From Trichomonas gallinae (lineage: Eukaryota): DNA of 40,528 bases. The DNA lies in the NCBI GenBank assembly GCA_008369845.1, contig MRSU01006691.1:1-40528 (forward strand), in the 5' to 3' direction. Under the pieces are notes generated by a model that saw nothing but the letters and a program-made list of their open reading frames with translations, did no database searches and had not been told where the DNA came from. A program made the translations under genes and the position numbers. Below are positions 49-40,271 of the stretch, piece after piece; within the stretch, counting starts at the first letter, position 1; each line of letters opens with the position of its first letter.

Positions 49-3000
49 ATGACCCAAAAATTTACATACGGTATCAAAAATGAATATTTATCAAAATTAT
101 TACTGGATAAGGCTATAATATGGCAATATATATTCGATAGACTTGGAATTTCTCATTGGTTATTAATGCGTGCAAGCGCATTGATCAAACCATGGGCTTA
201 TCCTGTCAAATCCAGTCAAGAGCCACTTAAAACATCTCGAAAGATCGATAAGCCCCAACAAAAAGCTCCTAAAACCCTTATTCATAAATCTGCAATGAAA
301 TCTTCGAATTTAGAAGCGAAACCTGTATCATTACTTAAGGATAAAAACTGTATCGAGGCACAAGGAATTCTAGAATCCGGAGAAAATTACGAAAAAATTG
401 ATAATGAAACCTTAGATATTTTACCTCTTTATCTGAATCAACTATCGCAAACATACGCGCGAAATAAAGATTTAGATCAAGCAGAAAAAGCAAAACAACT
501 AAAATCAAAAGCCAATTCTGAAACAGAAAGAAGAAAAATTCTAATAACATCAAAACCTAAAGATTTCTTCCAAGATGACTTCGACGATGATTTATCTGTA
601 TCTAAAAGTCAAAATAGATTAGAAAAATTCGATCAAGAAACAAATTTTTATTATCACCAATTACAAGAAAAGCAAGCAAAAGAGTTAAATGAGTTTGAAC
701 GTGTTTGGGCTGAAGAAAAAGCCATTAAATACAGGAAATCTTCCCCTGAACTCTTACAGCAAAAATATATTTATCAGCAACTTATTTTATCGAAGAAATA
801 CCCAGAAGCTAAGCAAAAAGCGCGCGAAATAGAAAAGAGAGAGCAAGCAGAAGTGATGCAAGCTCAAGCATTAATGAATAGAGATTATCAATATCAAAAA
901 ATGCAATTATTACAGAAACACAAGCGTGAACAAGATATATATGTAAGTAAACGCAGTGAACTTCGCCAAACATATGAAATGCAGATCAAAAAAGAAAAAG
1001 AAGTCGAAGAAAAACAACAAATTGCAAGAGAACGCGGAAAACCAGTATTACTTACATCTAGAACGAAACTAATAGAAGAAACAGGTATGCAGAGATTTAC
1101 TGGTCCATTCCATCATCTTAAATCTACTGAAGAAAAAATTGAAATTAATCCATTACTGCCAAACTTGGTTGCACCGAGTGAATCAATACGAAACACAAGA
1201 AATATGAGTTCAAGGACTGTTTATCACGAACCACAACCTTTAAGCAAGCCAGAATTAAATAAAGCAATTTGGGGCAATGTTGATATTAATCACAGAATGT
1301 TTTTAACACAGCCAGAGCCAATACAAAAGAAAGAAAAACCAGAAAAGTCTAAAGTTAGAACAAAAAGTCCATCAAAACATCATCATCACAAATCTAATCT
1401 GCCAAATATTAATACAAAGCTTGATCAATCATCATTAAGCAAGCTAAATAGGATACAGAAAGGTTGGAGCAGCGTCAAAATGGATGAAGACGAAGACCCT
1501 CGATTCCAAGGTTCTAATTCGAACATGTCTATGATTGCTCAGGCAGGATCAGACATAGAAATGCTGTCTAATGACTTGGATACAAATGATGTCCAATTCA
1601 ATGCAGAAGAAGGAGAAACAGATGAAATCAATGCAAAGAAATCATCAATTTTGTCCTTGAAGTCAATGTTCGTAGAAAAAGTCGGGAAAATTCCTGAAGC
1701 AATCGAAAATCAAAATAGGCAAAGCTCATTACGCAACTCAGACAAAGATCAAACGCACAATGAAGACACAAAACAACGCAAATTTGCTCCTGCAACCGAA
1801 AATTCATCAAAACTTGTTCCAATTCAAGATAAATCAATTGATGATAACTCATTTGAAGAACAAAATAGCATTTCGAAGCCAGTAATATCAGTTTTAACTG
1901 ATGCTTTTGATGAAAATCATGAAAAAGAAGAAAATAAAGTTGAAAAAATTAATGATAATGCTGATGATAAAAAAGAGAATAAATTTGAAGACAAAGTTGA
2001 AAACTTTGATGATGAAGAACATAAAGTAGAAGAGAAAAATGATGATGAAAGCAGCAAAAATAAAGAAGAAAAGAATAATATGGATGATATTCATAGTAAT
2101 TCATTTGAAGATGATGAAAGTAATGAACCATCAAATAAAAATGATATTGAAAAAGAAGAAAAAGTCAAAGATGCTGATGATGTTAAAGAAGATGAATTAA
2201 AGCAGGATATTGATGAAATCGTTAGTAACTCGTTTGATGAAGATGAACCACAAGAGAAAGAACTTGATTTAACTAAAACTGTCTCTTCAATGATTGAGAA
2301 AGGAAAAGATAATCAAAATGATGTAAAGCAAGAAAACAAAGAAGAAGAAAAACACGAACTTGATGACATCGAAAGCAATTCATTCGATGATGATGAAGAA
2401 AACAAAGAAGAAACAACAGCTAAAGAAGAAGTAAATTCTCTTGACATTGCAAAAGCTGTTAATTCAATGTTGCAACCTAAAGAAGATGAAGGAAAGAATG
2501 AACTTGATGAGATTCATAGCAACTCATTTGAAGACGATGATGAACAAGAGAATAAAACGGGAAAAACAGAGAATGAAAATAAGCAAGAAAACAACCCTTT
2601 CGAAGAGAACAGTGAAGAAAATCTAGTTGTTTCAAAACCAATATCCTCGATGTTGCAAAACGCGTTAAATCTAAAATCTAAAGATGAAGAGAAACTTGAT
2701 GATAAAGACTTTGAAGAAGAAACCAAACAAGATACAAAGAATTACGCCACCGATATTGATGCGATTGAAAGTAATTCTTTCGATGATGAAAGTGAATACG
2801 AAAATAAAGAAGAAGAAAGTGATAAGCCAATATCATCATTACTTTCTAATGCTCTTGAAAATCATGAGCAACGGAATGAAAAAGAAGATTCGTTTGAAGA
2901 AGAATCACATAAAGACAATGAAAATATTGATTCTTCTAAACAAAATGGACCAGAAACAAAAAAAGATGATAAAAATGATGAACCGGAAACAAAAATTAAT

Positions 3001-3390
3001 GAAAAACTTTCTTCTCTTCTTTCACCAGTGGATTCAGCAAACAACAGCAAAGCAAGAGATTTTGAACCGGAAAACAAAGATGAGCATAAAGCAGATACAA
3101 TTGGAATCAGTGTTGCAGCAATGCTCATACATTCTCTATCAGAACAAGATGAAAATGAGGAGGAAGATGATGAAATAGAAAAATATGCGAAAGATTATGT
3201 GGAAAAGGAAAGAAATTCACAGATAAAAAACATCATCAAAGATGTTAAACAACAGAATGATGATGATAAATCACAAGAAATGATTGTAAAAACATTCATT
3301 GCAAGCAACCTTCCAAGTGTTATTTCATCTGTTTTGCAAGAGAATCATCGAAATAATGAAGAAGACAAAGAAACACAAAAAATTTGCTGA
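49..3390 (+). CDS. Large hypothetical protein, N-terminal half: coiled-coil region followed by an acidic low-complexity repeat region. Probably one gene with 3383-5863, split by a +1 frameshift.
   Basis: 1113-aa ORF. Coiled-coil segment (LQEKQAKELNEFERVW...YRKSSPELLQ...KKYPEAKQ) then repeated DxIxSNSF[DE]DD motifs. The true start may be the ATG at 166, which follows a TCATT element. The ORF ends in TGA just after an A6 run (3377-3382). Confidence 0.8.
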   Translation: MTQKFTYGIKNEYLSKLLLDKAIIWQYIFDRLGISHWLLMRASALIKPWAYPVKSSQEPLKTSRKIDKPQQKAPKTLIHKSAMKSSNLEAKPVSLLKDKNCIEAQGILESGENYEKIDNETLDILPLYLNQLSQTYARNKDLDQAEKAKQLKSKANSETERRKILITSKPKDFFQDDFDDDLSVSKSQNRLEKFDQETNFYYHQLQEKQAKELNEFERVWAEEKAIKYRKSSPELLQQKYIYQQLILSKKYPEAKQKAREIEKREQAEVMQAQALMNRDYQYQKMQLLQKHKREQDIYVSKRSELRQTYEMQIKKEKEVEEKQQIARERGKPVLLTSRTKLIEETGMQRFTGPFHHLKSTEEKIEINPLLPNLVAPSESIRNTRNMSSRTVYHEPQPLSKPELNKAIWGNVDINHRMFLTQPEPIQKKEKPEKSKVRTKSPSKHHHHKSNLPNINTKLDQSSLSKLNRIQKGWSSVKMDEDEDPRFQGSNSNMSMIAQAGSDIEMLSNDLDTNDVQFNAEEGETDEINAKKSSILSLKSMFVEKVGKIPEAIENQNRQSSLRNSDKDQTHNEDTKQRKFAPATENSSKLVPIQDKSIDDNSFEEQNSISKPVISVLTDAFDENHEKEENKVEKINDNADDKKENKFEDKVENFDDEEHKVEEKNDDESSKNKEEKNNMDDIHSNSFEDDESNEPSNKNDIEKEEKVKDADDVKEDELKQDIDEIVSNSFDEDEPQEKELDLTKTVSSMIEKGKDNQNDVKQENKEEEKHELDDIESNSFDDDEENKEETTAKEEVNSLDIAKAVNSMLQPKEDEGKNELDEIHSNSFEDDDEQENKTGKTENENKQENNPFEENSEENLVVSKPISSMLQNALNLKSKDEEKLDDKDFEEETKQDTKNYATDIDAIESNSFDDESEYENKEEESDKPISSLLSNALENHEQRNEKEDSFEEESHKDNENIDSSKQNGPETKKDDKNDEPETKINEKLSSLLSPVDSANNSKARDFEPENKDEHKADTIGISVAAMLIHSLSEQDENEEEDDEIEKYAKDYVEKERNSQIKNIIKDVKQQNDDDKSQEMIVKTFIASNLPSVISSVLQENHRNNEEDKETQKIC

Positions 3391-5863
3391 AAAATTCTAC
3401 AATGATCAAATCGCGAAAGAACTAGATAATGTTCTTAATGTCAACGCTCAAGAATCACAAGAAGATAGAGAAGTTTCAGAATTTGCAGAAAATTTCTACA
3501 AAGAAAACATTTCTCGGCAAATTACATCAGTTCTTCATGAAAATATTCAAGAGTCAATCGATGATAGAAACTTTTCAGAATTTGCAGAAAAATTCTACAA
3601 AGATGAAATTACAAAGCAAATAAATCATACTCTTCACGAAAATTCTCAAGAATCTCAAAATGAAAGAGAATTTTCAAAATTTGCATCCGATTTTATCAAA
3701 TCTCAATCAAATGAAGAAATTACAAAAGCTTTCAAAGAAATCATTTCAAATAACAAAAAACAACAAATGGACATCCAAAAACCCATTCTCAAAGCAGTTA
3801 ATGATATTTATCCAAGTCCAATTTCCGAGGCTAATTATGATCAGCCAAAACTGATTCCCAAAGATATCAAGCCTGAAATAAATCCAATGCAAGCAAAATC
3901 AAAAGAAATTCCTAATGAATCACCAAAATCATTACCAAGGAAAGATACAATAGCCAAAGATGAAGATGAAAAACCATCACTGTTCAGCATGATAATGAAC
4001 CAAAACGAAGACAAAGATCCAAAAAAGAAAGTTGAGTCTCTAAACGAAACAAAGAATGAATCAAAGCCTGTAATAAGTAATTCACTTTTCAACAATATAT
4101 TCAACGTTCAAAATAACGAAAAGAAGAACGATGTACCGCAAAAGAATGAAAAACCACAACAATCTGGATTTAGTTCTTCTTTCATCAACTCAATTTTCAG
4201 CAACGATTCTACCTTTAAAAAACCAAACGAAGAACAAAAACAGACTGTTTTAAGTAACTCCCTACGGCCAAAACAATCAAAAGAGCCTCAGCAGAGAGAA
4301 ATTAAGCCTGATCAATCGAAAAATGAAGAAAAGCTATTGTTAAGTTCAATATTATCTAATGATACCAAACCAAATGTAGAAAAAGTTCAACAAAGAGAAT
4401 TCAAACCCGAAACACAAAAACAAGAATTAAATCTTGATGTTGAAGATGAAAAAGAACAACAAGAATTTGCGAAATCTTTCATTGGCAAGGAATTAAAGAA
4501 GATAATTAGTGATGCATTATCAATGAATTCATCAGAACATATTGAAGACAAGCAACATCATGAATTTGCTAAATCTTTTATTGACAAAGAATCAAAAACT
4601 ATGATTGATGACGTTTTAAACAAGAATTTGGCTCAAAATATTGAAATAAAGCAAGTAGATGAATTCGTAAAATCATTTTGCGAAAGAGAAACAAAAGTTT
4701 TGGTTGATGATGCATTAGAAAAGAATTTAGCAGAATCAAATGAAGACAAACAGCACGAAAAATTTGCCAAATCTTTCTATGAACAAGAAACAAGAGCATT
4801 TATTAATGATGTTCTGCAAGAAAATGCTGATGATACACAACAAGAAAAATTTGCTAAAAATTATAATGAAAAAGAAACAAATGCTTTGATTGATAATGCT
4901 CTCCAAGAAAACATTGATTATACACTGCAAGAACGGTTCGCAAAATCTTACTATGAACATGAATCAAAAACTTTGATAGATGATACTATTCAAGAAATAG
5001 TTGATGATGCACAACATGAAAGATTTGCAAAATCTTTTTATAATCAAGAGTTGAATGATTTACTATCAGTTATTATTAATGATAACATTGACATATACGC
5101 CAAAAATTATGCTCATGATGAACTCGATTCAATTATCGATGATTGTTTGTTAGAAAATGCTTCGCCTTATTTTGCAAATCAAATATCATTAGCTGTCATT
5201 GACGAAGTATTAAAATCTATTCAACAAATCGAAGAAGAAGTGAAAAATGAGAATGAAGAAATTAAAGATGATGAAGATTTTGCTGATGATGAAGAAAGTC
5301 TAAAGGAAGAAGATAATATTCCCAGTGGTGATGGATTTGATGATGATGGAGAACTAAAGTCGAAAGAATTAAATGTTGAAGATGAAATTCCAAGCGATTC
5401 GAATTTCGACGAAGAAACAGAAACAGCTGCTAATTCTGCGATGAAAGAACTTAAAGAAGATGAGATTCCAAGTAATTCAAACTTTGATGAAGGAACAGAA
5501 AGCAACACAACAAATGATGATGAAATACCGAGCAATTCAAATTTCGATGAAGAAACAGAAACAACAGAAAATTCTCCAATGAAAGAATACAAAGATGATG
5601 AAATTCCTAGTGATTCAAACTTTGACGAAGGAACTGAAAGTACAATAACAGAAGATTCTCCACTCAAAGAATATAAAGAAAATGAAGATGAAATTCCAAG
5701 TAATTCCGACTTCGATGAAGATACAGATAATAAAGAATCAGAAACAAAAGATGATGATATCCCAAGCAATTCTGACTTCGACGATGATGAAGATGTCTCA
5801 GATTTAAATCTAGAAGAAGATTACGATGCTTTACTTGAGGAAGAAGATATTAATCATGAATAA
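3383..5863 (+). CDS. C-terminal half of the same large acidic repeat protein (FA[KE]xF[YI] helical repeats and DEIPSxSxFD repeats)
   Basis: The frame is open from 3299 to the TAA at 5863, which overlaps TAAA. The repeat unit EDRExSEFAExFYKxxI continues the end of the upstream ORF (EDKETQK|FAEKFYNDQI) if one A is removed from the A6 run. Confidence 0.8.
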   Translation, partial: FAEKFYNDQIAKELDNVLNVNAQESQEDREVSEFAENFYKENISRQITSVLHENIQESIDDRNFSEFAEKFYKDEITKQINHTLHENSQESQNEREFSKFASDFIKSQSNEEITKAFKEIISNNKKQQMDIQKPILKAVNDIYPSPISEANYDQPKLIPKDIKPEINPMQAKSKEIPNESPKSLPRKDTIAKDEDEKPSLFSMIMNQNEDKDPKKKVESLNETKNESKPVISNSLFNNIFNVQNNEKKNDVPQKNEKPQQSGFSSSFINSIFSNDSTFKKPNEEQKQTVLSNSLRPKQSKEPQQREIKPDQSKNEEKLLLSSILSNDTKPNVEKVQQREFKPETQKQELNLDVEDEKEQQEFAKSFIGKELKKIISDALSMNSSEHIEDKQHHEFAKSFIDKESKTMIDDVLNKNLAQNIEIKQVDEFVKSFCERETKVLVDDALEKNLAESNEDKQHEKFAKSFYEQETRAFINDVLQENADDTQQEKFAKNYNEKETNALIDNALQENIDYTLQERFAKSYYEHESKTLIDDTIQEIVDDAQHERFAKSFYNQELNDLLSVIINDNIDIYAKNYAHDELDSIIDDCLLENASPYFANQISLAVIDEVLKSIQQIEEEVKNENEEIKDDEDFADDEESLKEEDNIPSGDGFDDDGELKSKELNVEDEIPSDSNFDEETETAANSAMKELKEDEIPSNSNFDEGTESNTTNDDEIPSNSNFDEETETTENSPMKEYKDDEIPSDSNFDEGTESTITEDSPLKEYKENEDEIPSNSDFDEDTDNKESETKDDDIPSNSDFDDDEDVSDLNLEEDYDALLEEEDINHE
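5312..5790 (+). repeat. Seven coding copies of the acidic motif D[EDN]IPSx[SD]xFD[DE]
   Basis: DNIPSGDGFDDD, DEIPSDSNFDEE, DEIPSNSNFDEG, DEIPSNSNFDEE, DEIPSDSNFDEG, DEIPSNSDFDED and DDIPSNSDFDDD are read directly from the translation. Confidence 0.9.
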
Positions 5864-10399: not shown

Positions 10400-12379
10400 A
10401 TGCTATTTTATCTTATAAATGCAATAATAGCTGCTGCAGAACAGCCACTTTATCTTACTCCAAGAACTACTAAGTACTACACTACGCCCAATATTCCAGT
10501 TTGGGATATCGATATCGAACAATTTGAACAAGTTTTACTTGCTAAACCAGCAGATGGCGCCAAAGTCAAGATTGTTTTGCCTGATTACAACACTGAGTAT
10601 CAAGAATACGAAATTGAGCAAGTTCCGTTATTTGAATTTGCGACAAGGAAGAAGTATCCAGGTAAATTGTTTGCATTTCGAGGAAATAAAGTTGGCAACA
10701 AAGAAGAACTATCGAAATGGATCCAGGTAAATTGTTTACTGCTTCCAATCATTGAAAGTTTATTACGTTGATCATGAAGAAACTATCGAAATGGATCAAA
10801 AACCAAATGGTATTACTATATATGTACCTTTTAGACGTACTAACGCGCGTTCACTTAAAGAACAAAATTTAACTGATAAACTTCAGCATAAGCATTTCTG
10901 CCATGTTCATAGAGAGGCTGGATCGCAGCTGCCAGATCCGGGCTTGTCATTTAATACAGACTTCGATAAATTTATGGATGATATCAAAGTTTTCAAATTT
11001 CTTCCTTTTCCAACTAGATCATATTCCAAAGCCCTAAACACAGCAAAAGGCTTACAATTAGATGGACTTAGTGATGATGTTTTTAGCTCTACAGCCCTTT
11101 ATGTCCTTTATTTGAATACAATCTATCTCCCAGTTCTCTCCACTCGTTTCGAAATGCAATTAGACTTAAATATGACTACTCTTCAATAAGAATCGCAAGA
11201 AGCAAAGAATAAATCTTGATCCCTCCAAAACCAAAGACTACGATATTGATAATAAAGTCTTGGATTTCGCAAGCAACTATTTTGATTTGAAAGATATCGA
11301 TCTTAGCGTAATGTTCGCAAACGGTCTTTCACAGGGCTTGGCTGTTCTCAAAGGTATGACTCCAAACAATCCTAAAAGGGCTGGAGCCTATGTTCTTGAT
11401 TGGTTCGTAGAATGTAGACAGTTCCCAATTATTCTTGCTCACGAAATCGGCCACATGTTAGGTACTGACCATGCATTCCAATATGAATATCCTGTTCGAC
11501 AAAACGTCATGGAGGCAACAGAAGTCGGTTCTGGCGTTACTATTATGTCTTATCCAGGAAGAACGACATTTGATGATGTCCTAAAGGATAATCTTCCTTA
11601 TTTCACATGGACGTCAAGCAAGCTCATGATTCAGACCCTCCTTGAGAATGATCAGATCAAGACCGTTCTGAAGAAGAACAGGAAGCCAGTCATTGGAAAC
11701 ATGAAATATCGTTATTATATTCCAACTGGTACAGCTTTCTTACTCAATGGAACTGCAACTGATCCTGATGATGATGTTCTTTATTATCTTTGGGAACAGT
11801 CGGATCCATTTACTCAATTAGTCAACCATGGCTCTTTCGGTCCAAATTTGGAATCTGGCGCTCTGATATGTAACTACGAACCGGTCCTTGAATCGCACAG
11901 ATTTGTCCCAAGACTTGATAGAATCAAAGCTGGAAAATTGACGGATTCGGCACCAAATATAGAGGCATGGGAAACTGTTGCTAACGTGCCAAGAAACATC
12001 ACCATGGCTTTTGTTGTTCGCGACAGAAAACTATTGAGCGGCGAAGCTGGAAACACTGCTGTTAAGATTGTAGAGCTAAAAACCGTCCAAAGCGAACCAT
12101 TCAAGATCTCATCATTCAGCCATTCAGAAACATTGAGTCGAGGATCAACGCACACTATCTATTGGACTGTCGGAAGTACTGCAGGTGAATAAATTAATAC
12201 GAAGACTGTAACTATTAAGTTCGCAGTTGATGGTGAACACTTTGATCATGTTCTAGCTCAAGGTGTTCCAAATACTGGTTACAATGCCATCAATAGCTAC
12301 AACACAAGGAAGAATTATGATCCAAGGCGATGATAATATATTCATTGCTATCAACACAGGAGATATTACACTGAATTAA
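10400..12379 (+). pseudogene. Fragmented secreted reprolysin-like (M12B-like metzincin) zinc metallopeptidase of bacterial type
   Basis: Signal-like N-terminus MLFYLINAIIAAA, zinc motif HEIGHMLGTDH (HEXXHXXGXXH), Met-turn GSGVTIMSY, then IPTGTAFLLNGTATDPDDDVLYYLWEQ, AFVVRD and VLAQGVPNTG. Breaks: frameshift at about 10703-10737, frameshift/stop at about 11176-11189, in-frame TAA at 12190-12192, frameshift at about 12281. The final frame MPSIATTQGRIMIQGDDNIFIAINTGDITLN ends at TAA 12379. Confidence 0.85.
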
Positions 12380-12430
12380 TAATTGTTTACAAGCTATGTA
12401 TCATTCTAGAGTAAATTAATGCATGTATAT

Positions 12431-12628
12431 TTAAGAATCACAAAATATAGCAATGTGCTTGAAATCAGGAACTGTGAGAGGGAGTTTGACAGCTTCATGA
12501 TGACCATAAATTGAAGCACAAATCAAAGCTGTATCATTGATAATAGTTTTTGCATTGACATTTATTCCAGGAACTGTGAGAAGGAATTTGACATCTTCAT
12601 GATGACCATATCTTGAAGCTAAAATCAA
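12431..12628 (-). pseudogene. Ankyrin-repeat gene fragment (about 2 repeats, no ATG start)
   Basis: LILASRYGHHEDVKFLLTVPGINVN and TALICASIYGHHEAVKLPLTVP. Two DNA copies 102 bp apart (caggaactgtgaga at 12466 and 12568). Confidence 0.75.
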
Positions 12629-13075
12629 AGGTTGATCAACATTAAAAATTGCGTTTTGAGGATAAAAATTAGAACATAATCATATTTCTTATAGAACAAA
12701 CCGAAGATATTGCTTCAAATGTTACAATGAGATAAAATTATTTATTACATTCTATTAGACATCAAAACGTTACTTTTGATTTACAAGTATTCAATTCTTA
12801 TGAAATAATGATATCAATACTTTCACTATCCCGCTGAAAAATAGCATCCCTATGATGTGTATATATTACTGTATAAATATGGCGTTTCAATTTTAAGGTT
12901 TTTGGTTCAGGCTCTTCTGAAACAATACTTAAAAAATATTAAAGATATTTCCAAAATTTTTCAATATTTAGTCATTATTCATTATAAAGATTTGATATTT
13001 ATACTCAAAAACACATAAAATAAAGAAAATTTATCGGTAACAAAAAATATTCGTTATTTTTCGAAAAAAAACTCG

Positions 13076-16111: not shown

Positions 16112-16576
16112 ATTATTTGACAGTTTACGTGTCAATAAATTTCAGCACTTAACCAAAAATTTACTTGTCAAATTTCGATATTTACATGACAGTTTATATG
16201 TCAGTATTATCTTATCTTTACATGGCAAACTGGTTATTTACATGTCAAATATACTCGAATTGAATAATTTATATGTCAAAATTACTAATTTCCATGATTA
16301 GCAAATTAGAAGTAGGAAGTGAGAAGATTCTTACATGAATTTTCCCCATATTTGGAATGTATGTAGGTATATCCTTTATGATAAATATTATAGAAAATCT
16401 TAAGCAATTTGAGCAAGTTACATGTTTATTTTTAAATTGTAATATGATTTTGAAATTTTTATTTGTCAAATTATTGATATTGAAATGTTTATTTGTCAAA
16501 TTGTAAGATAATTTACGTGGCATATAATTTATTAATTGAATATTTTACATGTCAATTATTATTGATTTACGTGTCA
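16112..16576 (+). repeat. Cluster A of the co-oriented 11-bp motif TTTAYDTGDCA (12 exact matches)
   Basis: Matches start at 16124, 16160, 16181, 16193, 16217, 16237, 16268, 16458, 16488, 16512, 16544 and 16566, all on the + strand, with a near match at 16112. Confidence 0.9.
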
Positions 16577-19454: not shown

Positions 19455-19595
19455 AGTCATGTAAATGTTTTTCTGTCATTGTAATGTTTTTGAATCATTT
19501 TGCCATGTAGATTGTTTTCTGTAAGTGTAAAGTATATACATAGTTTTGTCATGTAAATATTTTTCTGTCAGTGTAAAGTCTTTACATTATGTCAT
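19455..19595 (-). repeat. Cluster B: three degenerate 46-bp tandem units, each with two copies of the TTTAYDTGDCA-like motif on the minus strand
   Basis: agtcatgtaaa 19455, tgccatgtaga 19501 and tgtcatgtaaa 19547 (period 46). tgtcattgtaa 19474, tgtaagtgtaaa 19520 and tgtcagtgtaaa 19566 (period 46). Confidence 0.85.
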
Positions 19596-19729
19596 TTTTC
19601 TTTAACGTACAAAAAATAATTCTTTCAAATTCGAAAATTTTTAGTTTTTTCGCCATAATATAGTCAAAGGGTTCCATTTCTCCAATAAAAACTACTTTAC
19701 ATTTCACCTCATAAAAAATATAAAAAAAA

Positions 19730-27599: not shown

Positions 27600-27776
27600 T
27601 GTCGTGTAATGTGTCGTATTTCGGAAATAATTTGTCATGTAATATATTATATTATATATTATATTATATATTATATTTTATATTATATTTTGAGAATAAT
27701 TTGACGTGTAATGTGTCATATTTCATAAGTATTTGCCATGTAATGAGAATAATTTTAATTAAATTTGTCATGTAAA
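27600..27776 (-). repeat. Cluster C of the TTTAYDTGDCA-like motif on the minus strand, interrupted by a TATAT-type microsatellite
   Basis: tgtcgtgtaat 27600, tgtcatgtaat 27633, tgacgtgtaat 27702, tgccatgtaat 27734 and tgtcatgtaaa 27766. A/T-only run at about 27643-27690. Confidence 0.8.
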
Positions 27777-30518: not shown

Positions 30519-30990
30519 GGAACAATTTAAAATACTAAAATTTTCTGGCATGTAAATTTTTGTAAAAGCAAATTGTCGCTTTTTGACTTTGATTAAAAGT
30601 GACAATTCATGAATTTTTGTTTTTGTGATTTTTTTAACTCTTCTCCTTGTTTTTGTATAAAAAGCATTGTATCATGCTAATGCCACTTAAGATATAACTA
30701 ATACTACTTAATTAAAAGAATTATTTATCGAAGAAAATTTTTATTCTTTCTTGATATCTCAAGAAAATCATTTGCTAAATATGACTTCATAGTTATCTCT
30801 CTGAATTACCATACAAAATGAGTCTAAATGTTTCTAATGCACTAATTCAAGATCAATTTTTCTAAAATAAAGCTGAAATAAGAATGAGAATAAATTCATG
30901 CCAAAAACATTTTCCATGAAGATTGCACTATCTTCATAGATGGATAATATTAAAGATTTTCTTAAGATATATTAAGATATATTTTTATAG

Positions 30991-32242: not shown

Positions 32243-32577
32243 TTTCAAATATATTTGTCCTGCAATAAATTTCGAATTTTTAAAATTTTCACAAAATTTC
32301 AAATATCATGAATAAAATCACTATATATGCACCAATAATAGCAAATTTCATATATAAATCCTTTGAATTAATAAAATAAAAATATGAAAATTATAAAAAA
32401 AGAAAAGTTATTAAAAGTATTGCAAATATGGTTAATGTTGGTGAAAAGTTTTGCTGATTATAAGTAAAAATTTGATGATAATAAAGATATTTCGATTTTT
32501 TATAATAAATATGTAAATTATCGGCCATTTTTAGGACCGATGACAAATAAAATAATCCGTAATTATGTATATTGATC

Positions 32578-33608: not shown

Positions 33609-34683
33609 TCAAACACCTCCCTCGATAATTTTTTCAGACCCTAAATTTCAAAACTTTGTGAAATTTCAAAAACATGCTTTTTATGATAAATAGTACAGAT
33701 TTATTATAATTTAAACGTTCGTTGACTCAATTTTGATCGGAAAGAAAAATGCGATCATGTAGTCCAATCACATATAGGATAAACTATGCATTGTATCTAA
33801 AATCTATTTATAAGAGATACAGCTCTCAACGTTTTGATTACTAGCAAACCAAAAATATCATTGATTAATTGTCCATCAAGGATTGGAGAAGATAATATTT
33901 ATATTGATTTCAATCTGTTTACAGTTAAATCAAAGCTTAATTCTTCTAATTATATTCGAAAAAAAAATTATCAAAAACAAGCCTAATCAGCTATAATACA
34001 AAATGTTAAAATGCAATAAAATCGATATATGATAATGTGATTGCAATTCATGAAAATATTTTGGTAAAATCACCATCAAATTTGAATATTATGGGATATC
34101 ATACACTTTACAAAGTAGAGTTTGTTATTTATAGATGGGTTATGCATAAATTTGAGTTTAGAATGAAATCTAAACCTAGCTTTAGATTGATTTATTAAAA
34201 ATGGCAGAAAATTTTGATATTTGTTTTTCAATATATTTATCATTAATATATCTAATACTATCTAAAAACCTTGAAATTTTGATGATATAGAATTTTATTA
34301 ATTTTGACATGTAAAGCTAAATTTTAGCAATCAAGATTTTTAATTTCCATTGGATATAGTATCCTTGATGGGAACTATAATAAGAAGCTTAATATAAAGA
34401 TTCAATTCCAATGTTTTGTTGTGGGCAACTTTTTTCAGAAAAAATTCCAACGAGGATAAATTTCGACAAAAAGAAAATTAGTGATAAAATAAGATATAGA
34501 AACAAAATAACAAATAAAAATAGAAAAATGAGTTTTGTAAAAGTGCCGTTTGTAAATAAAAGTGGCAAAATTTCACAAAAAGCAATAAAACGTGACAAAT
34601 TTATAAAAAGTGACAAATATCGGTCTACCTTTTCGTAAGAGAAAAAAAAAATTATTATCGTTTTCTATAACTTTTAAAAAAAA

Positions 34684-35289
34684 ATGAGTTATAAAGTTGT
34701 TCTTCTCGGCGAAGGTCGTGTCGGCAAATCCTCCATCGGAAACAAGTGGCACTCCGGAACGTTTGACTCCCAGAGGCGTTCGACCGTGGCAGCTGCATTT
34801 TTCCAGAAGTCTGTCCTCTGCCAAGGCAAAAATGTAGATATTCAGCTCTGGGATACAGCTGGACAGGAAGAATACCATTCTCTCACACCAATTTACTACA
34901 AAGACGCTCAAGCGGCACTTCTCGTATATTCCGTCGTTGATTCTGCAAGTTTCGACAGAATGATGCAGTGGAAGAACGAGCTCGTTATGACACGTGGCGA
35001 AAATATTAAAATTATCATCGCGGCGAACAAGATAGATATGGTTCAGCAGAGAGTTATCACGCCACAGCAAGGCATTGATTTCGCAAGCAAAGTCGGTTGC
35101 CAAATCTTTGAAGTTTCCGCTAAGACAGGAGAAGGTATTGACATGCTTTTCCAGGCATTAGCGAAAACATTACTTGAAATTCCACAGAAAAAGACTGGAC
35201 CAACAAGAGGCGGCAAGGTCGGCCTTCAAGTTATCAATGGAAACAACGATCAAGCGCAAGAAAACCAGTCTAAAGGCGGATGTTGCTAA
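34684..35289 (+). CDS. RAB21: Rab21-like small GTPase
   Basis: GEGRVGKS P-loop, STVAAAF effector loop, WDTAGQEEYHSLTPIYYK, NKID, EVSAK and C-terminal GGCC. Confidence 0.9.
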   Translation: MSYKVVLLGEGRVGKSSIGNKWHSGTFDSQRRSTVAAAFFQKSVLCQGKNVDIQLWDTAGQEEYHSLTPIYYKDAQAALLVYSVVDSASFDRMMQWKNELVMTRGENIKIIIAANKIDMVQQRVITPQQGIDFASKVGCQIFEVSAKTGEGIDMLFQALAKTLLEIPQKKTGPTRGGKVGLQVINGNNDQAQENQSKGGCC

Positions 35290-35641
35290 AAATGATTATA
35301 GATCTTTTTATACCAAAAGACTTTCCATAAAATTATATTCACAAAATAATAAACAGGGTATTTTATTTTTGTACAATTACTTATCTCTAATTTTTTCGAG
35401 GAGCCAATATTTTTTCAATTACAAAACCTGGTTATATCCTTCTCGTATTTTATATTTCAATCATAAATCAACCAGAAAATATATATTTCCTATATTGGTC
35501 GTACTCCGACAGTTGAAAAAATCATCAATTTTCGTAAAACAAATAAAATCACAAATTTCACCGCAAAATCATTTTATTTTCATATATACACCATGTATTT
35601 TTAAAAGACAATGAAAAATAAGAGATCAGAGAATAATAAAT

Positions 35642-35804
35642 TTTACATGGCATTTTAATACAAAACAATGAGTTTATTTGTCAAGATTTCGATTTATATG
35701 GCAAAATTATAATTTATATGGCAAAATTTAGATTTTATTTGTCAAAAAATTTGCTTATATGACAGAATTATGATTTATATGGCAAACAAATGATTTATAT
35801 GTCA
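35642..35804 (+). repeat. Cluster D: eight co-oriented TTTAYDTGDCA motifs at 20-21 bp period
   Basis: Starts at 35642, 35673, 35693, 35713, 35734, 35754 (one mismatch), 35774 and 35794. Spacings are 31, 20, 20, 21, 20, 20 and 20. Confidence 0.92.
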
Positions 35805-35853
35805 GATAATACATAGTATTTAGTACAAATAACAAACAAATAAAATATATGGA

Positions 35854-37869
35854 TTAGAATATATCTGGATCCGAGTAGTCTTCATCAGGTTCACTATCTT
35901 GTTCGATTTCTGGCTGTTTTGGTTGAGTTTCATCGAGTTTAATTAAAGGACCTGTGTTAAACTCTGATGTCTTCTTTAACTCATTCTCATGGAGATACTG
36001 AAGTGCTTTCGCCATCAAATCCTCTCTCTTCTTCTCACGAGATTCATCTTCATTCGCTTTCTTTGCTCCAATCGGGAAAGCTTTGAGTGCTTTCTGAAGC
36101 AGATGCTTCTCATAGAAAGACTGAGCTGTGAAATCTTTGTTTCTTTGAGAATCAATAAAAGCATTTTTGATTTCGTTGAAGAAATCTCTTAAAATTATTG
36201 GTCTTATTGCGCCTTGTACCTTGGCTATTGCATTCTTTGTTGATTGCACATTCAACTTGAATAATCTCATCAGATTTCGTTTGAAATTGAGATTTCTAAG
36301 CTTTTGAGCTTCTTTGACTTGTTTTTCTTCTTTTTTGAGGACTTCATTTGCTAATGCTCTAAAGACTTTCTTCTGTAATTGCTTTTCATGATGTTTAATT
36401 GAATTTCTCTCGATTTCTTCGAGCTTCTTCATAGCTTTCTTCCATAAACTGAAGAGATGCTTCCTTCTAAAATATTTTACAACGACTTCAAGCTTCGCCA
36501 TTCTTTCTTTTTCTTGAATCATTTTTTCAAATTTCTTATTCGCGATGATTTGGTTGTTTAATTGCTTCTGGCGTTCTTGGTGTTGGTGCTCGAGCATCTT
36601 CTTGTGTTGTTCGATCAATTTCTTCTGTTCAATTCTGTTTTGTTTTTCTAAACGTTTCTTTTCCTTTTCATCTTGTTTCATTCGCTCCTTTGTCTCTTCT
36701 ATCTTCCTCTGCTTCGACTCGTTGGCTCTTTTAAGCAATTCTTCAGCTCTTGGATCAGCAACAATAGGAAGAGGCGATGGTTTTCGTTTAAATTGATCTG
36801 GAGGCCTGAGATATACAGGAACCTTCCTTTCAGCTGATTTTGATGGTTTCTTTCGCATTCTTTTAAGCCATTTGTTGAAAAATAATGCGGTTGTTAAACT
36901 TCGCAGTTTTACCTTCGCAACGTGCGCCAATCTCTGTAGTTTAGCGCTGTGGATCCTGTTCTGGCATTCTTCTTCGTATATCTTGCGTTGTAAAACTTTT
37001 TGATTATGTCTCTCTTTCCACTCCTTAAAAGCTCTCCTCGTCAAGCGTAATTTCGATAATGTAGATACTGTGAACTCTCTACGTTGAGATCTTGATGTCT
37101 TTTGTTGCCATTTGAAAAATAAAACAGATTTTTTGACCAAAAAGAATTGATCAATTTGTCGCATCAGTTTCTCATTATCTCGCTTTTGTATTTTCTGCTG
37201 TTGTTGGACCTCTGTTTCGTGTGTTTTCGGTTTATTTTTTGTTGGTAAAATAACATTCGTTTTTATTGGCTCTTTTGAGCTCGAGCTTGTAAGTATTGGC
37301 TGTTTATTTGTAATTTGATGAATATTTTGTGGTTGTTCGATAATAATTTCATTTGATGGTTTTTTCTCAACGTATTCGATTACATTCTCTTTTATTTCGT
37401 TGGATTGTGGAGACTTTCTTGGTTTTTCGACTGGAATTGTTTGTGTTTCTTGAATTTTTTTAGAAATTTTTGGATTTTCTTGAATATTTGGAATTGGCTG
37501 CTCATCATATATTTGAACAGCTTTATTCTCGTAGCTACGACGTTTTTTGTGTGTATGAGGTGACTGTTTCCTATTTGTTTTAGGTTTTTCATAAGATTTA
37601 TTATTTGCTACAGAGATTTTTTCATGAATTTGCAATGCATTGTTTCTTGGCTCCACAACAATAGCAGATATGTGTGTTCCAAGCTTCTTTGCTATAGGTG
37701 GAGGAATAACACCAAATTTTTTCAGCAAATAATCACATTGGTTCATTGCCTGGTCTTCCCTCATCTCTTGGGAGATTTCAGCTGTGTATTCTCTCTTGAG
37801 ATTATCCAGCCAGCATGAAATCTCCCGTTTTTTCATCAATAAATTCTTAACGTACGTAATTATTTTCAT
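35854..37869 (-). CDS. Basic coiled-coil protein with Sfi1-like FxxW repeats (possibly CCDC191-like, basal-body associated)
   Basis: 671-aa ORF with LFFKWQQK, AFKEWKE, FFNKWLK, LFSLWKK and KVFRAL repeats. The start codon is uncertain. Confidence 0.75.
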   Translation of the reverse strand: MKIITYVKNLLMKKREISCWLDNLKREYTAEISQEMREDQAMNQCDYLLKKFGVIPPPIAKKLGTHISAIVVEPRNNALQIHEKISVANNKSYEKPKTNRKQSPHTHKKRRSYENKAVQIYDEQPIPNIQENPKISKKIQETQTIPVEKPRKSPQSNEIKENVIEYVEKKPSNEIIIEQPQNIHQITNKQPILTSSSSKEPIKTNVILPTKNKPKTHETEVQQQQKIQKRDNEKLMRQIDQFFLVKKSVLFFKWQQKTSRSQRREFTVSTLSKLRLTRRAFKEWKERHNQKVLQRKIYEEECQNRIHSAKLQRLAHVAKVKLRSLTTALFFNKWLKRMRKKPSKSAERKVPVYLRPPDQFKRKPSPLPIVADPRAEELLKRANESKQRKIEETKERMKQDEKEKKRLEKQNRIEQKKLIEQHKKMLEHQHQERQKQLNNQIIANKKFEKMIQEKERMAKLEVVVKYFRRKHLFSLWKKAMKKLEEIERNSIKHHEKQLQKKVFRALANEVLKKEEKQVKEAQKLRNLNFKRNLMRLFKLNVQSTKNAIAKVQGAIRPIILRDFFNEIKNAFIDSQRNKDFTAQSFYEKHLLQKALKAFPIGAKKANEDESREKKREDLMAKALQYLHENELKKTSEFNTGPLIKLDETQPKQPEIEQDSEPDEDYSDPDIF

Positions 37870-38135
37870 TATTATTGCATAAATGGACTAATTTATGTCA
37901 ATGAACCAGATTTTTCTCATCAAAACTGCAAAACGATATACATATTTTATTGAAATTTTTCAATTTTTAATAAATTTAGGGATTTTATTCGAAATTTGGA
38001 TTCATTTTGTATTAACTTAGATGATAATAGATTTTGATTTTTCGAAAAATGTTAAAAAATGATGAAAATGAAGAAAAATTAGACAATTTTTAAAATTAAA
38101 AATGATTTTTCGTTTTTTGTTTAAAAAAATTTTGG

Positions 38136-40271
38136 ATGACTTTGAGATATGCCCACGTTCCCAAGGCCGAAATGGTCTATGGATCGTGGAGCAGTTACTC
38201 AGATGATGACGAGACAGACGAAGAATCGTGTAATTCTGATATAGACTCAAAATTACAGAATCAAATTTCGAAAACAATTCCTGATGATTCGAAATTGAAC
38301 TTAAATATCTCAGATGTGAGTCAAACAAATACACCTACCAAGTCAAAATCGAAAAATAAGAAGAATTCAGATTCGGATTTTGGCTTTGGTTCATATTCTG
38401 ACTCTGATACTCCACAATACAAACATGTACAAGAAGATGTAGACGAATTCACTAAAATTCAGACCGTAAGTTTTACAGAAGAAGCGTTATTACTCGATGA
38501 CGACTACGATTCTGATCATACTGATAATGTTTGCTTGGAAGAGTCGTTGAATACAACTTTAGCAAATTCGCAAGAAAAAATCGAATATTCTGATTCTTCT
38601 TCATCTGAACAAGAACAAGAGCAATCAACGCTGCTGAATGAAGAACCAATCATCGACGATGGATACGAAGATGACGACACTGATGATGAAAGTTTTCAAG
38701 CTGTTGAAGAAAATCTATTTGATACTTCAAAGATCGAACAAACAGAAGAATCAACATTCGCACAAACTCGCGAAACTTCCCAAATAAATCAAATTTCATC
38801 AATCGAAAACATTCAAAATCAAATTAATAAAGTCAACGAAAGAAAACAAGAACAGGTCACCGATAAATCAATCATACCAATACAAGAACAAAAAACAATC
38901 GTAAAACAATCAGAAAATGAAATACAAAATATCAATCTCAATTCTACAGAAACCAAACAAAATCAAATACAAGATAAGCCAATTACACCAACACAAGAAC
39001 AAAAACCAGACAAAAAACAACAAGAAAAAGAAACTCAAAATATTAATCTCAATTCTATTGAATCAAAACAAGATAAGTCAATAGTACCAATACAAGAGCA
39101 AAAACCAGTCGAAAATCAACAAGAAAATGAGAATCTAAATTTGAGTGTAAAAGAACCAAGTAAGAGTCTCGCTGCTATTGATACGAAAGAAGATGATCTT
39201 AATCTTACGATTACGCTCAAATCTGACCAGTCTTACCCTCAGATTTCTAAAAATAATAAAGAATCTGAATTATTACCGAAAATCAGACAGCTTTTGAATG
39301 ACGCAATGGAAATAAGGCACAAAAATGATCCGAAAAACAACTCAGATGATGACGATTTCGATTTATCAAGAAAAAGATTCATCGATGTTGACGAAGAACC
39401 TGCATTAAATTCGACTCCTTTAATAGAAAACAAGTCCCAAAACGCGTTATTTAGTCACTTGTGCGAGCTCAAAAAGAATAATAACGAAAGGAAACAAAGT
39501 TCTGTTGCAATAATTTCGATTGAGCACCTTCACAACATATTTTCACTACCTAAATCAGAATTACTACTACGAATAAGCTTTGTGCCGCAAAATGAAAACG
39601 TCAAAACTGGAAATGAATATGATATTTTATTAAGAAATTCAACGAAAACACCTGGAAAGCTAAAACCGTCATCAATAGATAAAATAGTAGCTATATATCC
39701 ACATAACTCATCATTTACTCTCAACTTTTCATTTTTAAACAACAGATCGATTTTTGCTTCGACGCGGCTTAATTTATCTAATTCAAAACCGGGCAAAATC
39801 TTTCTGCAGTTCATGAAAGAACCAGGGGGCATCAACTGCGACATCAGCTCAAAGCTAAAAGGATTTTTCGCGAAAATTAAAGATCCATGTCTAGAAATCA
39901 CGCTGTCTTTCGCCAACGAGAAAGATTGCAAGAAGTTGATGAAAATACCTGATTTCTGCATAATGCCATTGTGCGCTGTGGACTCCGTCATGGCCTTCAG
40001 AGACTGCTTCTATATACTGCAGACGACGAAGAAAAATCCGCATTACGCGCAATTAATTTCTGGATTCGGGTCTATTCTCGATGATCCTGTGAGATTGGAG
40101 AAGATGAGTAATGATATAAAGGAAGCAAAGAAAATGGGCTTGACAACGACAAAATTTGTTGAGATTTTATCAAAATTTGTCTCAGAAAGCGCAGATATGA
40201 CTCCATTTTCAACAGATGAGCTGATTCCGTTGAAAATATACTATAACATTCTCAAGAATGAGAAAATTTAG
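38136..40271 (+). CDS. Hypothetical protein: acidic S/D-rich N-terminus, Q/N-rich repeats and a globular C-terminal region
   Basis: 711-aa ORF containing three DKxIxPxQEQK...NxNL repeats. Confidence 0.85.
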   Translation: MTLRYAHVPKAEMVYGSWSSYSDDDETDEESCNSDIDSKLQNQISKTIPDDSKLNLNISDVSQTNTPTKSKSKNKKNSDSDFGFGSYSDSDTPQYKHVQEDVDEFTKIQTVSFTEEALLLDDDYDSDHTDNVCLEESLNTTLANSQEKIEYSDSSSSEQEQEQSTLLNEEPIIDDGYEDDDTDDESFQAVEENLFDTSKIEQTEESTFAQTRETSQINQISSIENIQNQINKVNERKQEQVTDKSIIPIQEQKTIVKQSENEIQNINLNSTETKQNQIQDKPITPTQEQKPDKKQQEKETQNINLNSIESKQDKSIVPIQEQKPVENQQENENLNLSVKEPSKSLAAIDTKEDDLNLTITLKSDQSYPQISKNNKESELLPKIRQLLNDAMEIRHKNDPKNNSDDDDFDLSRKRFIDVDEEPALNSTPLIENKSQNALFSHLCELKKNNNERKQSSVAIISIEHLHNIFSLPKSELLLRISFVPQNENVKTGNEYDILLRNSTKTPGKLKPSSIDKIVAIYPHNSSFTLNFSFLNNRSIFASTRLNLSNSKPGKIFLQFMKEPGGINCDISSKLKGFFAKIKDPCLEITLSFANEKDCKKLMKIPDFCIMPLCAVDSVMAFRDCFYILQTTKKNPHYAQLISGFGSILDDPVRLEKMSNDIKEAKKMGLTTTKFVEILSKFVSESADMTPFSTDELIPLKIYYNILKNEKI
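38862..39145 (+). repeat. Three coding tandem repeats (33-37 aa)
   Basis: DKSIIPIQEQK...QNINLNSTETKQ, DKPITPTQEQK...QNINLNSIESKQ and DKSIVPIQEQK...ENLNL. Confidence 0.85.

Follow-up and report, generated by a model that had tools for sequence, protein, structure and literature searches.

General regulatory factors of yeast, i.e., Reb1, Abf1 and Rap1, have short sites near gene starts and ends. Plasmid iterons are near-identical, Rep-binding direct repeats of 17-22 bp; the origins of plasmids and archaea typically contain repeated boxes. The budding-yeast ARS consensus begins with the eight letters WTTTAYRT. In Trichomonas vaginalis, the motifs M1-M5 were reportedly defined by Smith et al. in 2011.

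In the available text of PMC4223856 and PMC13515687, M2 (AAAGTGAC) is an orphan promoter motif without a shown function. The cis-elements named in the accessible part of the Trichomonas literature are Inr, M1-M5, Myb sites, ATTSAAT, CGGCGG and a 6mA-peak word; chromatin loops and distal open chromatin are also described there, without a known sequence-specific organiser. At yeast origins, a strong site is accompanied by a weaker one in the opposite orientation (PMC12440816, in the part of the article available).

The array described here resembles the sites of yeast general regulatory factors, and homotypic clusters, in being a short degenerate intergenic word present in several copies, near gene starts and gene ends. 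It differs from yeast general regulatory factor sites by the presence of up to 13 co-oriented copies arisen by tandem duplication, by another word and by another (putative) protein. A homotypic cluster is expected to repeat a degenerate word that is more frequent in non-coding DNA than chance would allow, and this is what is found.

The array and its flanking genes

The window, i.e., the whole stretch of 40,528 nucleotides that was analysed, contains 19 intron-less genes separated by short AT-rich gaps, according to an ORF scan; for this count, one gene start was shortened on visual inspection and the two neighbouring ORFs at 10.8-12.2 kb were taken as a single gene. By Pfam, these genes include BspA-type leucine-rich repeats, ankyrins and two Rab GTPases. 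A reprolysin-like metallopeptidase region (10791-13075) is split over the ORFs 10791-11189 and 11311-12192, with an interrupted coding-like sequence after them up to ~12650; this region is probably a pseudogene. The overlapping long ORFs 49-3390 and 3356-5863 (49-5863 altogether) have internal repeats of 87-138 bp and may be one gene broken by a frameshift.

Repeat finding and a motif scan delimit, at 35642..35804 on the + strand, eight co-oriented copies of TTTAY(A/T)TG(G/T/A)CA with a period of ~20 bp. The copies start at 35642, 35673, 35693, 35713, 35734, 35754, 35774 and 35794. The start-to-start spacings are 31, 20, 20, 21, 20, 20 and 20 bp, i.e., 20-21 bp for six out of seven. An earlier note on this DNA had given eight motifs with these spacings between convergent genes, and its positions and spacings are exact; the five linkers which it quoted are all present, to which aaaaatttg and a first linker of 20 nt must be added. 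Seven copies match TTTAYDTGDCA exactly, and the copy at 35754 has one mismatch. In 2000 dinucleotide shuffles of the 564-bp focal gap the motif occurs 0.02 times on average and once at most, vs. seven times in the gap itself.

Both stop codons confirm that the array sits between two gene 3' ends, as was first proposed. The gene at 34684..35289 (+ strand) encodes a Rab21-like small GTPase (Pfam Ras). Its identity is 87% with T. vaginalis Rab21 and no more than 58% with named Tritrichomonas and Histomonas matches; judged from these identities, the focal locus belongs to the nuclear genome of a Trichomonas species. The gene at 35854..37869 (− strand, 671 aa) has no Pfam match and two unnamed homologs, and its nearest Atlas cluster is «Sfi1 spindle body domain» (score 0.90). 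It is plausibly Sfi1-like, an annotation drawn from language-model features only. Of the two identities proposed for the flanks, the Rab21-like one is thus retained and the Sfi1-like one is a lead. The distance from the Rab stop to the array is 352 bp, and that from the array to the stop of the minus-strand gene is 49 bp.

An ORF at 35237-35614 without Pfam match was treated as spurious. In the focal gap, the stretch 35440-35600 is slightly GC-richer and contains TCATT/TCATA initiator-like words before a three-codon ORF at ~35593. Neither Pfam nor Rfam gave a match in this stretch, which could be a decayed gene start.

The poly(A) rule of T. vaginalis, as given in the available text of PMC13515687, is UAAA with cleavage 11-30 nt downstream. 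The stop codon of the Rab21-like gene overlaps a UAAA signal, and the message is predicted to end at ~35301-35320; one RNA-type contig ends at 35321, ~320 bp short of the array, a weak hint since this contig is single. For the minus-strand gene, the first UAAA past the stop is 35822-35819, and the predicted cleavage at ~35808-35789 falls on the last copy of the array. From these ends, the array likely belongs to neither message and lies against one 3' end. The RNA-type contigs of X2 and X3 cover the Rab gene only and X6 none, so that the missing cover over the array is uninformative.

The array could be a dedicated 3'-end element, i.e., one that serves the Sfi1-like gene as a polar roadblock or as a fail-safe series of termination signals. 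The minus strand carries TAAA in seven of the eight copies, which is the T. vaginalis poly(A) signal in the part of PMC13515687 available, and cleavage on the last copy is what the UAAA nearest to the stop (35822) would give. Nevertheless, UAAA is common in DNA of 77% AT, it leaves the invariant TG.CA half of the word unexplained, and two of the four clusters described below lie in divergent gaps, without 3' ends. A dedicated 3'-end role is thus very unlikely. A structured non-coding RNA was rejected: the Rfam search with the array gave 0 matches and no stable fold of its minus strand was found (z −0.08).

Further clusters of the word in the window

TTTAYDTGDCA has 23 exact matches in the whole window, vs. 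1.07 expected by chance. The 7,631 bp of intergenic DNA contain 23 of them (mean 0.40 and maximum 3 in 300 shuffles) and the 32,627 bp of coding DNA 0 (shuffle mean 0.58). Sixteen of the 23 are outside the focal gap. The word forms four clusters, each confined to one strand and each with its own repeat period, three of which are absent from the earlier note. The motif scan places these three at: (i) 16112..16576 (+ strand), the largest, with 13 co-oriented copies in a divergent gap, the last one 16 bp before an ATG; (ii) 19455..19557 (− strand), in a divergent gap, where the tandem unit measures 46 bp (3 sites, and in addition one variant site per unit); (iii) 27600..27776 (− strand), with five copies and a period of ~33 bp (spacings of 33, 69, 32 and 32 bp), in a tandem gap upstream of the second Rab gene. 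Single exact copies are found in a divergent gap (34305..34315, − strand) and in a convergent gap (32541..32551, − strand). Clusters are thus present in 2 of the 6 divergent gaps, in 1 of the 5 tandem ones and in 1 of the 6 convergent ones, four clusters being too few for a placement test.

The convergent position and the 20-bp period, which had been taken as properties of the element, do not hold as such: the other three clusters border gene starts, in gaps that are divergent or tandem, and their periods are 12-36, 46 and ~33 bp.

The 46-bp units at 19455-19600 combine a canonical site with a variant in which TTTAC and TGACA are one letter further apart, a hint of two half-sites at a flexible distance. 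On the minus strand, the sequence of two units at 27600-27718 is GACAC-ATTACACG(A/T)CA, and one of them forms an inverted TGAC...GTCA pair. An (AT)-rich microsatellite (27642-27689) lies within the 27600-27776 cluster.

The clusters were compared with a matrix for which the 13 sites at 16112-16576 were the sole training set (cut-off of 8 bits). All eight focal sites exceed 8 bits (9.6-17.0) and nothing else does in the focal gap. The same matrix recovers the clusters at 19455-19557 and 27600-27776, and gives 38 matches above 8 bits in the window, 7 of them coding. Columns 3, 4, 8 and 10 of the motif are invariant in 22 of 22 non-focal and in 8 of 8 focal sites. Columns 5, 6 and 9 are variable in both, the fixed pattern being TTA..TG.CA. 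The similarity between the 16-kb and the focal clusters is explained by the motifs alone, since 59 of 300 shuffles in which the motifs were kept score as high. When the motifs are masked, no pair among the four gaps aligns above its shuffle maximum. Since the four gaps align no better than shuffles outside the motifs, the shared unit is the word and not a dispersed repeat.

A relic of transposon ends, i.e., subterminal transposase-binding repeats, is one half of a reading whose other half is a mechanical, protein-free periodic element; this reading as a whole is highly improbable. T. vaginalis is rich in DNA transposons, according to the available part of bioRxiv 10.1101/603894. On the contrary, the masked gaps align at shuffle level and have no common flanks or terminal inverted repeats, and contigs of run X1 (see below) match two to three units only and then diverge. 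In the supplements of PMC12289875 (~400 letters of the long sequences), 12 exact 11-mers have 0 matches; 12 10-mers have only 2 single matches in the transposon file of that article (again ~400 letters of the long sequences). Supplementary file 5 of PMC12289875 has one near-copy of the word (first letter A) near the start of GEN_ISTv1. Beyond this single near-copy, no cluster of the word was seen in GEN_ISTv1 (~400 letters of the long sequences).

Regarding replication, the array is comparable to plasmid iterons by its direct orientation and by start-to-start distances of about two helical turns. It is unlike them in its location on a eukaryotic chromosome, in its neighbours (Rab21 and Sfi1-like genes, no Rep gene), in its 11-bp core, in its linkers, which are 48% alike vs. 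39% expected, and in having sister clusters with other periods. The plasmid-iteron geometry that had been put forward is thus kept for spacing and orientation, and as an analogy only for a eukaryotic nuclear locus without Rep gene. A blastn search against plasmids gave 17 weak matches (E 0.04-0.5), none of which covers more than 48% of the query. A plasmid iteron origin was rejected, as there is no adjacent Rep gene, only 11 bp are conserved and the plasmid matches are weak and partial.

The clusters could also be landing pads for divergent Trichomonas origin recognition proteins, at ~1 per 10 kb. In full, the array would be an iteron-like direct-repeat origin in a eukaryotic nucleus, arisen apart from the yeast ARS. 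Cluster placement is indifferent to gene orientation, as this would predict, and WTTTAYRT fits five of the eight focal copies. However, that 8-mer likeness is cheap in AT-rich DNA (the window has 28 such matches in intergenic and 9 in coding DNA), and the last three letters of the ARS consensus differ in all copies: 0 of 8 match it in full, and no full match occurs on either strand of the focal gap. The clusters each keep to one strand, vs. the opposed site pair of yeast, and have many copies in a row, unlike the budding-yeast ARS; neither the array matrix nor the ARS consensus has a minus-strand match in the focal gap. Four clusters per 40 kb are also dense for origins. A sequence-defined origin of this kind is thus decidedly unlikely, and a yeast-type ARS was rejected for want of a full consensus and of an opposed site in the focal gap.

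The word shares with M2 the TG(A/G)CA half, as seen in the window, where M2-like copies also occur in a short cluster at 34558-34615. It differs from M2 by TTTAY plus one letter, vs. the A-tract and G that precede TGAC in M2. M2 (A-tract, then GTGAC) has no match in 35642-35804, and matches at 30595, 31321 and 34558-34607. These copies lie just upstream of gene starts, unlike the focal array. Identity of the word with M2 was rejected, no M2 match being found in the array. The M2-like cluster, AAAAGTG(A/G/C)C, extends over 34541-34620 upstream of the Rab21 gene, with copies ~20-30 bp apart followed by CCTTT (M5-like). The isolated M2-like words at 30595 and 31321 point towards the two genes of one divergent gap.

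Helical phase, duplication and conservation of the cores

The focal array is best fitted by a period of 10.15 bp (resultant 0.98). With a helix of 10.5 bp/turn, its sites rotate over ~190 degrees in all (resultant 0.53). The proposal that bound proteins would line up on one face of the helix is therefore adequate for neighbouring sites and not for the whole array, which would be on one face only if the DNA were wound as on a nucleosome. Of the 17 non-focal spacings, 16 are of at most 50 bp: 12, 12, 20-24, 30-36, 46 and 46 bp. These 16 lean to whole turns at 10.5 bp (mean cosine 0.38, p ~0.007), in a test where spacings are dependent through duplications and where the variant second site of the 46-bp unit, which gives a half-turn spacing of 26-27 bp, was left out. 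At 10.2 bp the lean is not significant (p = 0.11), and the best period is ~11 bp.

The 10-bp AA/TT and G+C periodicities of the focal array are the strongest among the intergenic windows tested (0 of 130 others higher, one tied for AA/TT). The divergent gap 37870-38135 has a 10-bp A/T-tract periodicity as high as that of the focal array, without a motif cluster. The focal array is comparable to the PATCs of C. elegans by its minisatellite origin and its 10-bp AA/TT periodicity (available part of bioRxiv 10.64898/2026.08.08.743475). It is unlike PATCs in having a specific conserved word and no transposon link found, and in that the periodicity is absent from the other three clusters. A mechanical element, the second half of the highly improbable reading introduced with transposon ends, thus draws on the focal array, where the AA/TT periodicity is strongest and recalls the Helitron-derived PATCs (same source), and is contradicted by the three clusters which lack it.

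Tandem Repeats Finder detects periods of 20 and 61 in the focal array and of 12, 15/30 and 46 in two non-focal clusters. Since each cluster has its own period, each grew by its own local duplications. In the focal array, alignment of the halves reveals a higher-order duplication of 61 bp (35663-35723 / 35724-35784, + strand). The two copies are identical at 31 of 33 core letters and at 15 of 28 linker letters (Fisher p = 3e-4); the divergence is thus unevenly spread, 13 of the 15 differences being inside the 28 linker letters, and one of the two core changes is in a loose column. Across the focal array only 11 bp are conserved. The claim that the array is phased and co-oriented, that its cores are conserved while its linkers vary, and that it resembles a protein-binding array, is supported by the sequence analysis. 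In the 46-bp cluster (three pairs), the cores are identical at 27/33 and the rest of the unit at 72/105, i.e., without core excess, although a second, variant site is present in the unit.

Metagenomes were scanned for three phased copies of the word. At least 122 loci were obtained, mostly homogeneous minisatellites. Successive linkers have a median likeness of 94% among the 117 of 122 loci listed vs. 51% in the focal array, the cores of those loci being forced by the triple pattern. By their letters, ordinary minisatellites look different from the focal array, with cores that are pattern-forced in this comparison. No trichomonad-like gene was recognized by eye in the ORFs of 13 of these loci (of at least 122). 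The scan of viral contigs for phased copies gave 13 loci, near-homogeneous repeats by eye. Alignment with Rab21 gave 79 viral and 33 prokaryotic-genome loci, with 35-41% identity in the rows of best E-value; no close trichomonad match is found among these 112 loci. The word has a density of 0.016 per kb in them (26 matches in 1.6 Mb), vs. 0.57 per kb in the window.

A contig of 9.3 kb from run X1 covers 34206-38297 with 247 substitutions (~6%) and 15 gap letters. This orthologous contig bridges the array, with no listed indel in 35636-35840 (one relative compared). On this alignment, the length of the array is kept in a related trichomonad ~6% away. Thirteen other X1 contigs match pieces of the array of 29-59 nt (two to three units) and then run on unlike it. 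The depth of the 8 displayed pieces is 23.5-27.9, vs. 27.4 for the orthologous contig. These matches are consistent with further arrays elsewhere in the genome of the orthologous contig, though no proof of a common source organism. It must be noted that genome-wide statements on the word have the 40.5-kb window and run X1 as their basis.

The array could nonetheless be a neutral minisatellite, in which slippage multiplied one copy of the word, either functional or present by chance, and which is itself idle. The head-to-tail periods (20 and 61 in the focal array; 12, 15/30 and 46 in two others) are in agreement with it, as are the period proper to each cluster, which local duplication predicts, and the 46-bp cluster devoid of core excess. 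On the contrary, neutral slippage fits poorly with the 61-bp duplicate, with its cores at 31/33 and linkers at 15/28, and with linkers 51% alike vs. the median of 94% in the metagenome loci listed (with pattern-forced cores). It would also need four unrelated repeats seeded by one word, and the length is unchanged in one relative. An idle array is thus unlikely.

A putative family of binding sites

The word is non-coding, clustered and co-oriented, has a reproducible degeneracy profile and is locally amplified by tandem duplication. From these features, the array may be a series of homotypic binding sites for one abundant nuclear protein, which would organise the intergenic DNA and bound converging transcription units; we give this reading about an even chance. 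Selection would keep the cores while the linkers drift. A putative sequence-specific protein would read the cores, several copies at once, and spacings of near-integer turns would help the joint occupancy of several copies. The weakest step concerns its action. The protein may act like a general regulatory factor, i.e., by excluding nucleosomes next to gene starts, and as a barrier or roadblock next to gene ends, between converging genes. This step is suggested because clusters occur in every kind of gap and because the minus-strand gene has its predicted poly(A) site directly at the focal array.

The word resembles homeodomain (TGACA) and bZIP (hybrid TTAC/GTGGCA box) sites, which we take to be leads only. 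No candidate binding protein for the word was found, and nothing usable on homeodomain or bZIP factors fitting it was present in the accessible Trichomonas literature, including PMC11586516.

No description of the word is present in the available text of PMC13515687, PMC12289875 (with supplements), PMC11702783, PMC12802312 and bioRxiv 10.1101/603894. The same holds for the available text of PMC4223856, PMC2725143, PMC11586516, PMC7058166 and PMC12440816, and for the abstract of bioRxiv 10.64898/2026.08.08.743475. A full-text literature search for five variants of the word found nothing. Published motif searches mostly cover 100 bp around transcription starts, so that many clusters would escape them.

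Judging by the window and run X1, the array is apparently one member of an undescribed family of clustered, putative intergenic binding sites in Trichomonas, and is better read as such than as a unique iteron-like origin. An abundant, clustered and strictly intergenic word can be used directly as pull-down bait and as a defined target in deletion work. It also lets the existing ATAC-seq, 6mA and RNA-seq data of T. vaginalis be re-read for boundaries and origins. If the word were an origin signal, it would be a rare sequence-defined eukaryotic origin outside budding yeasts.
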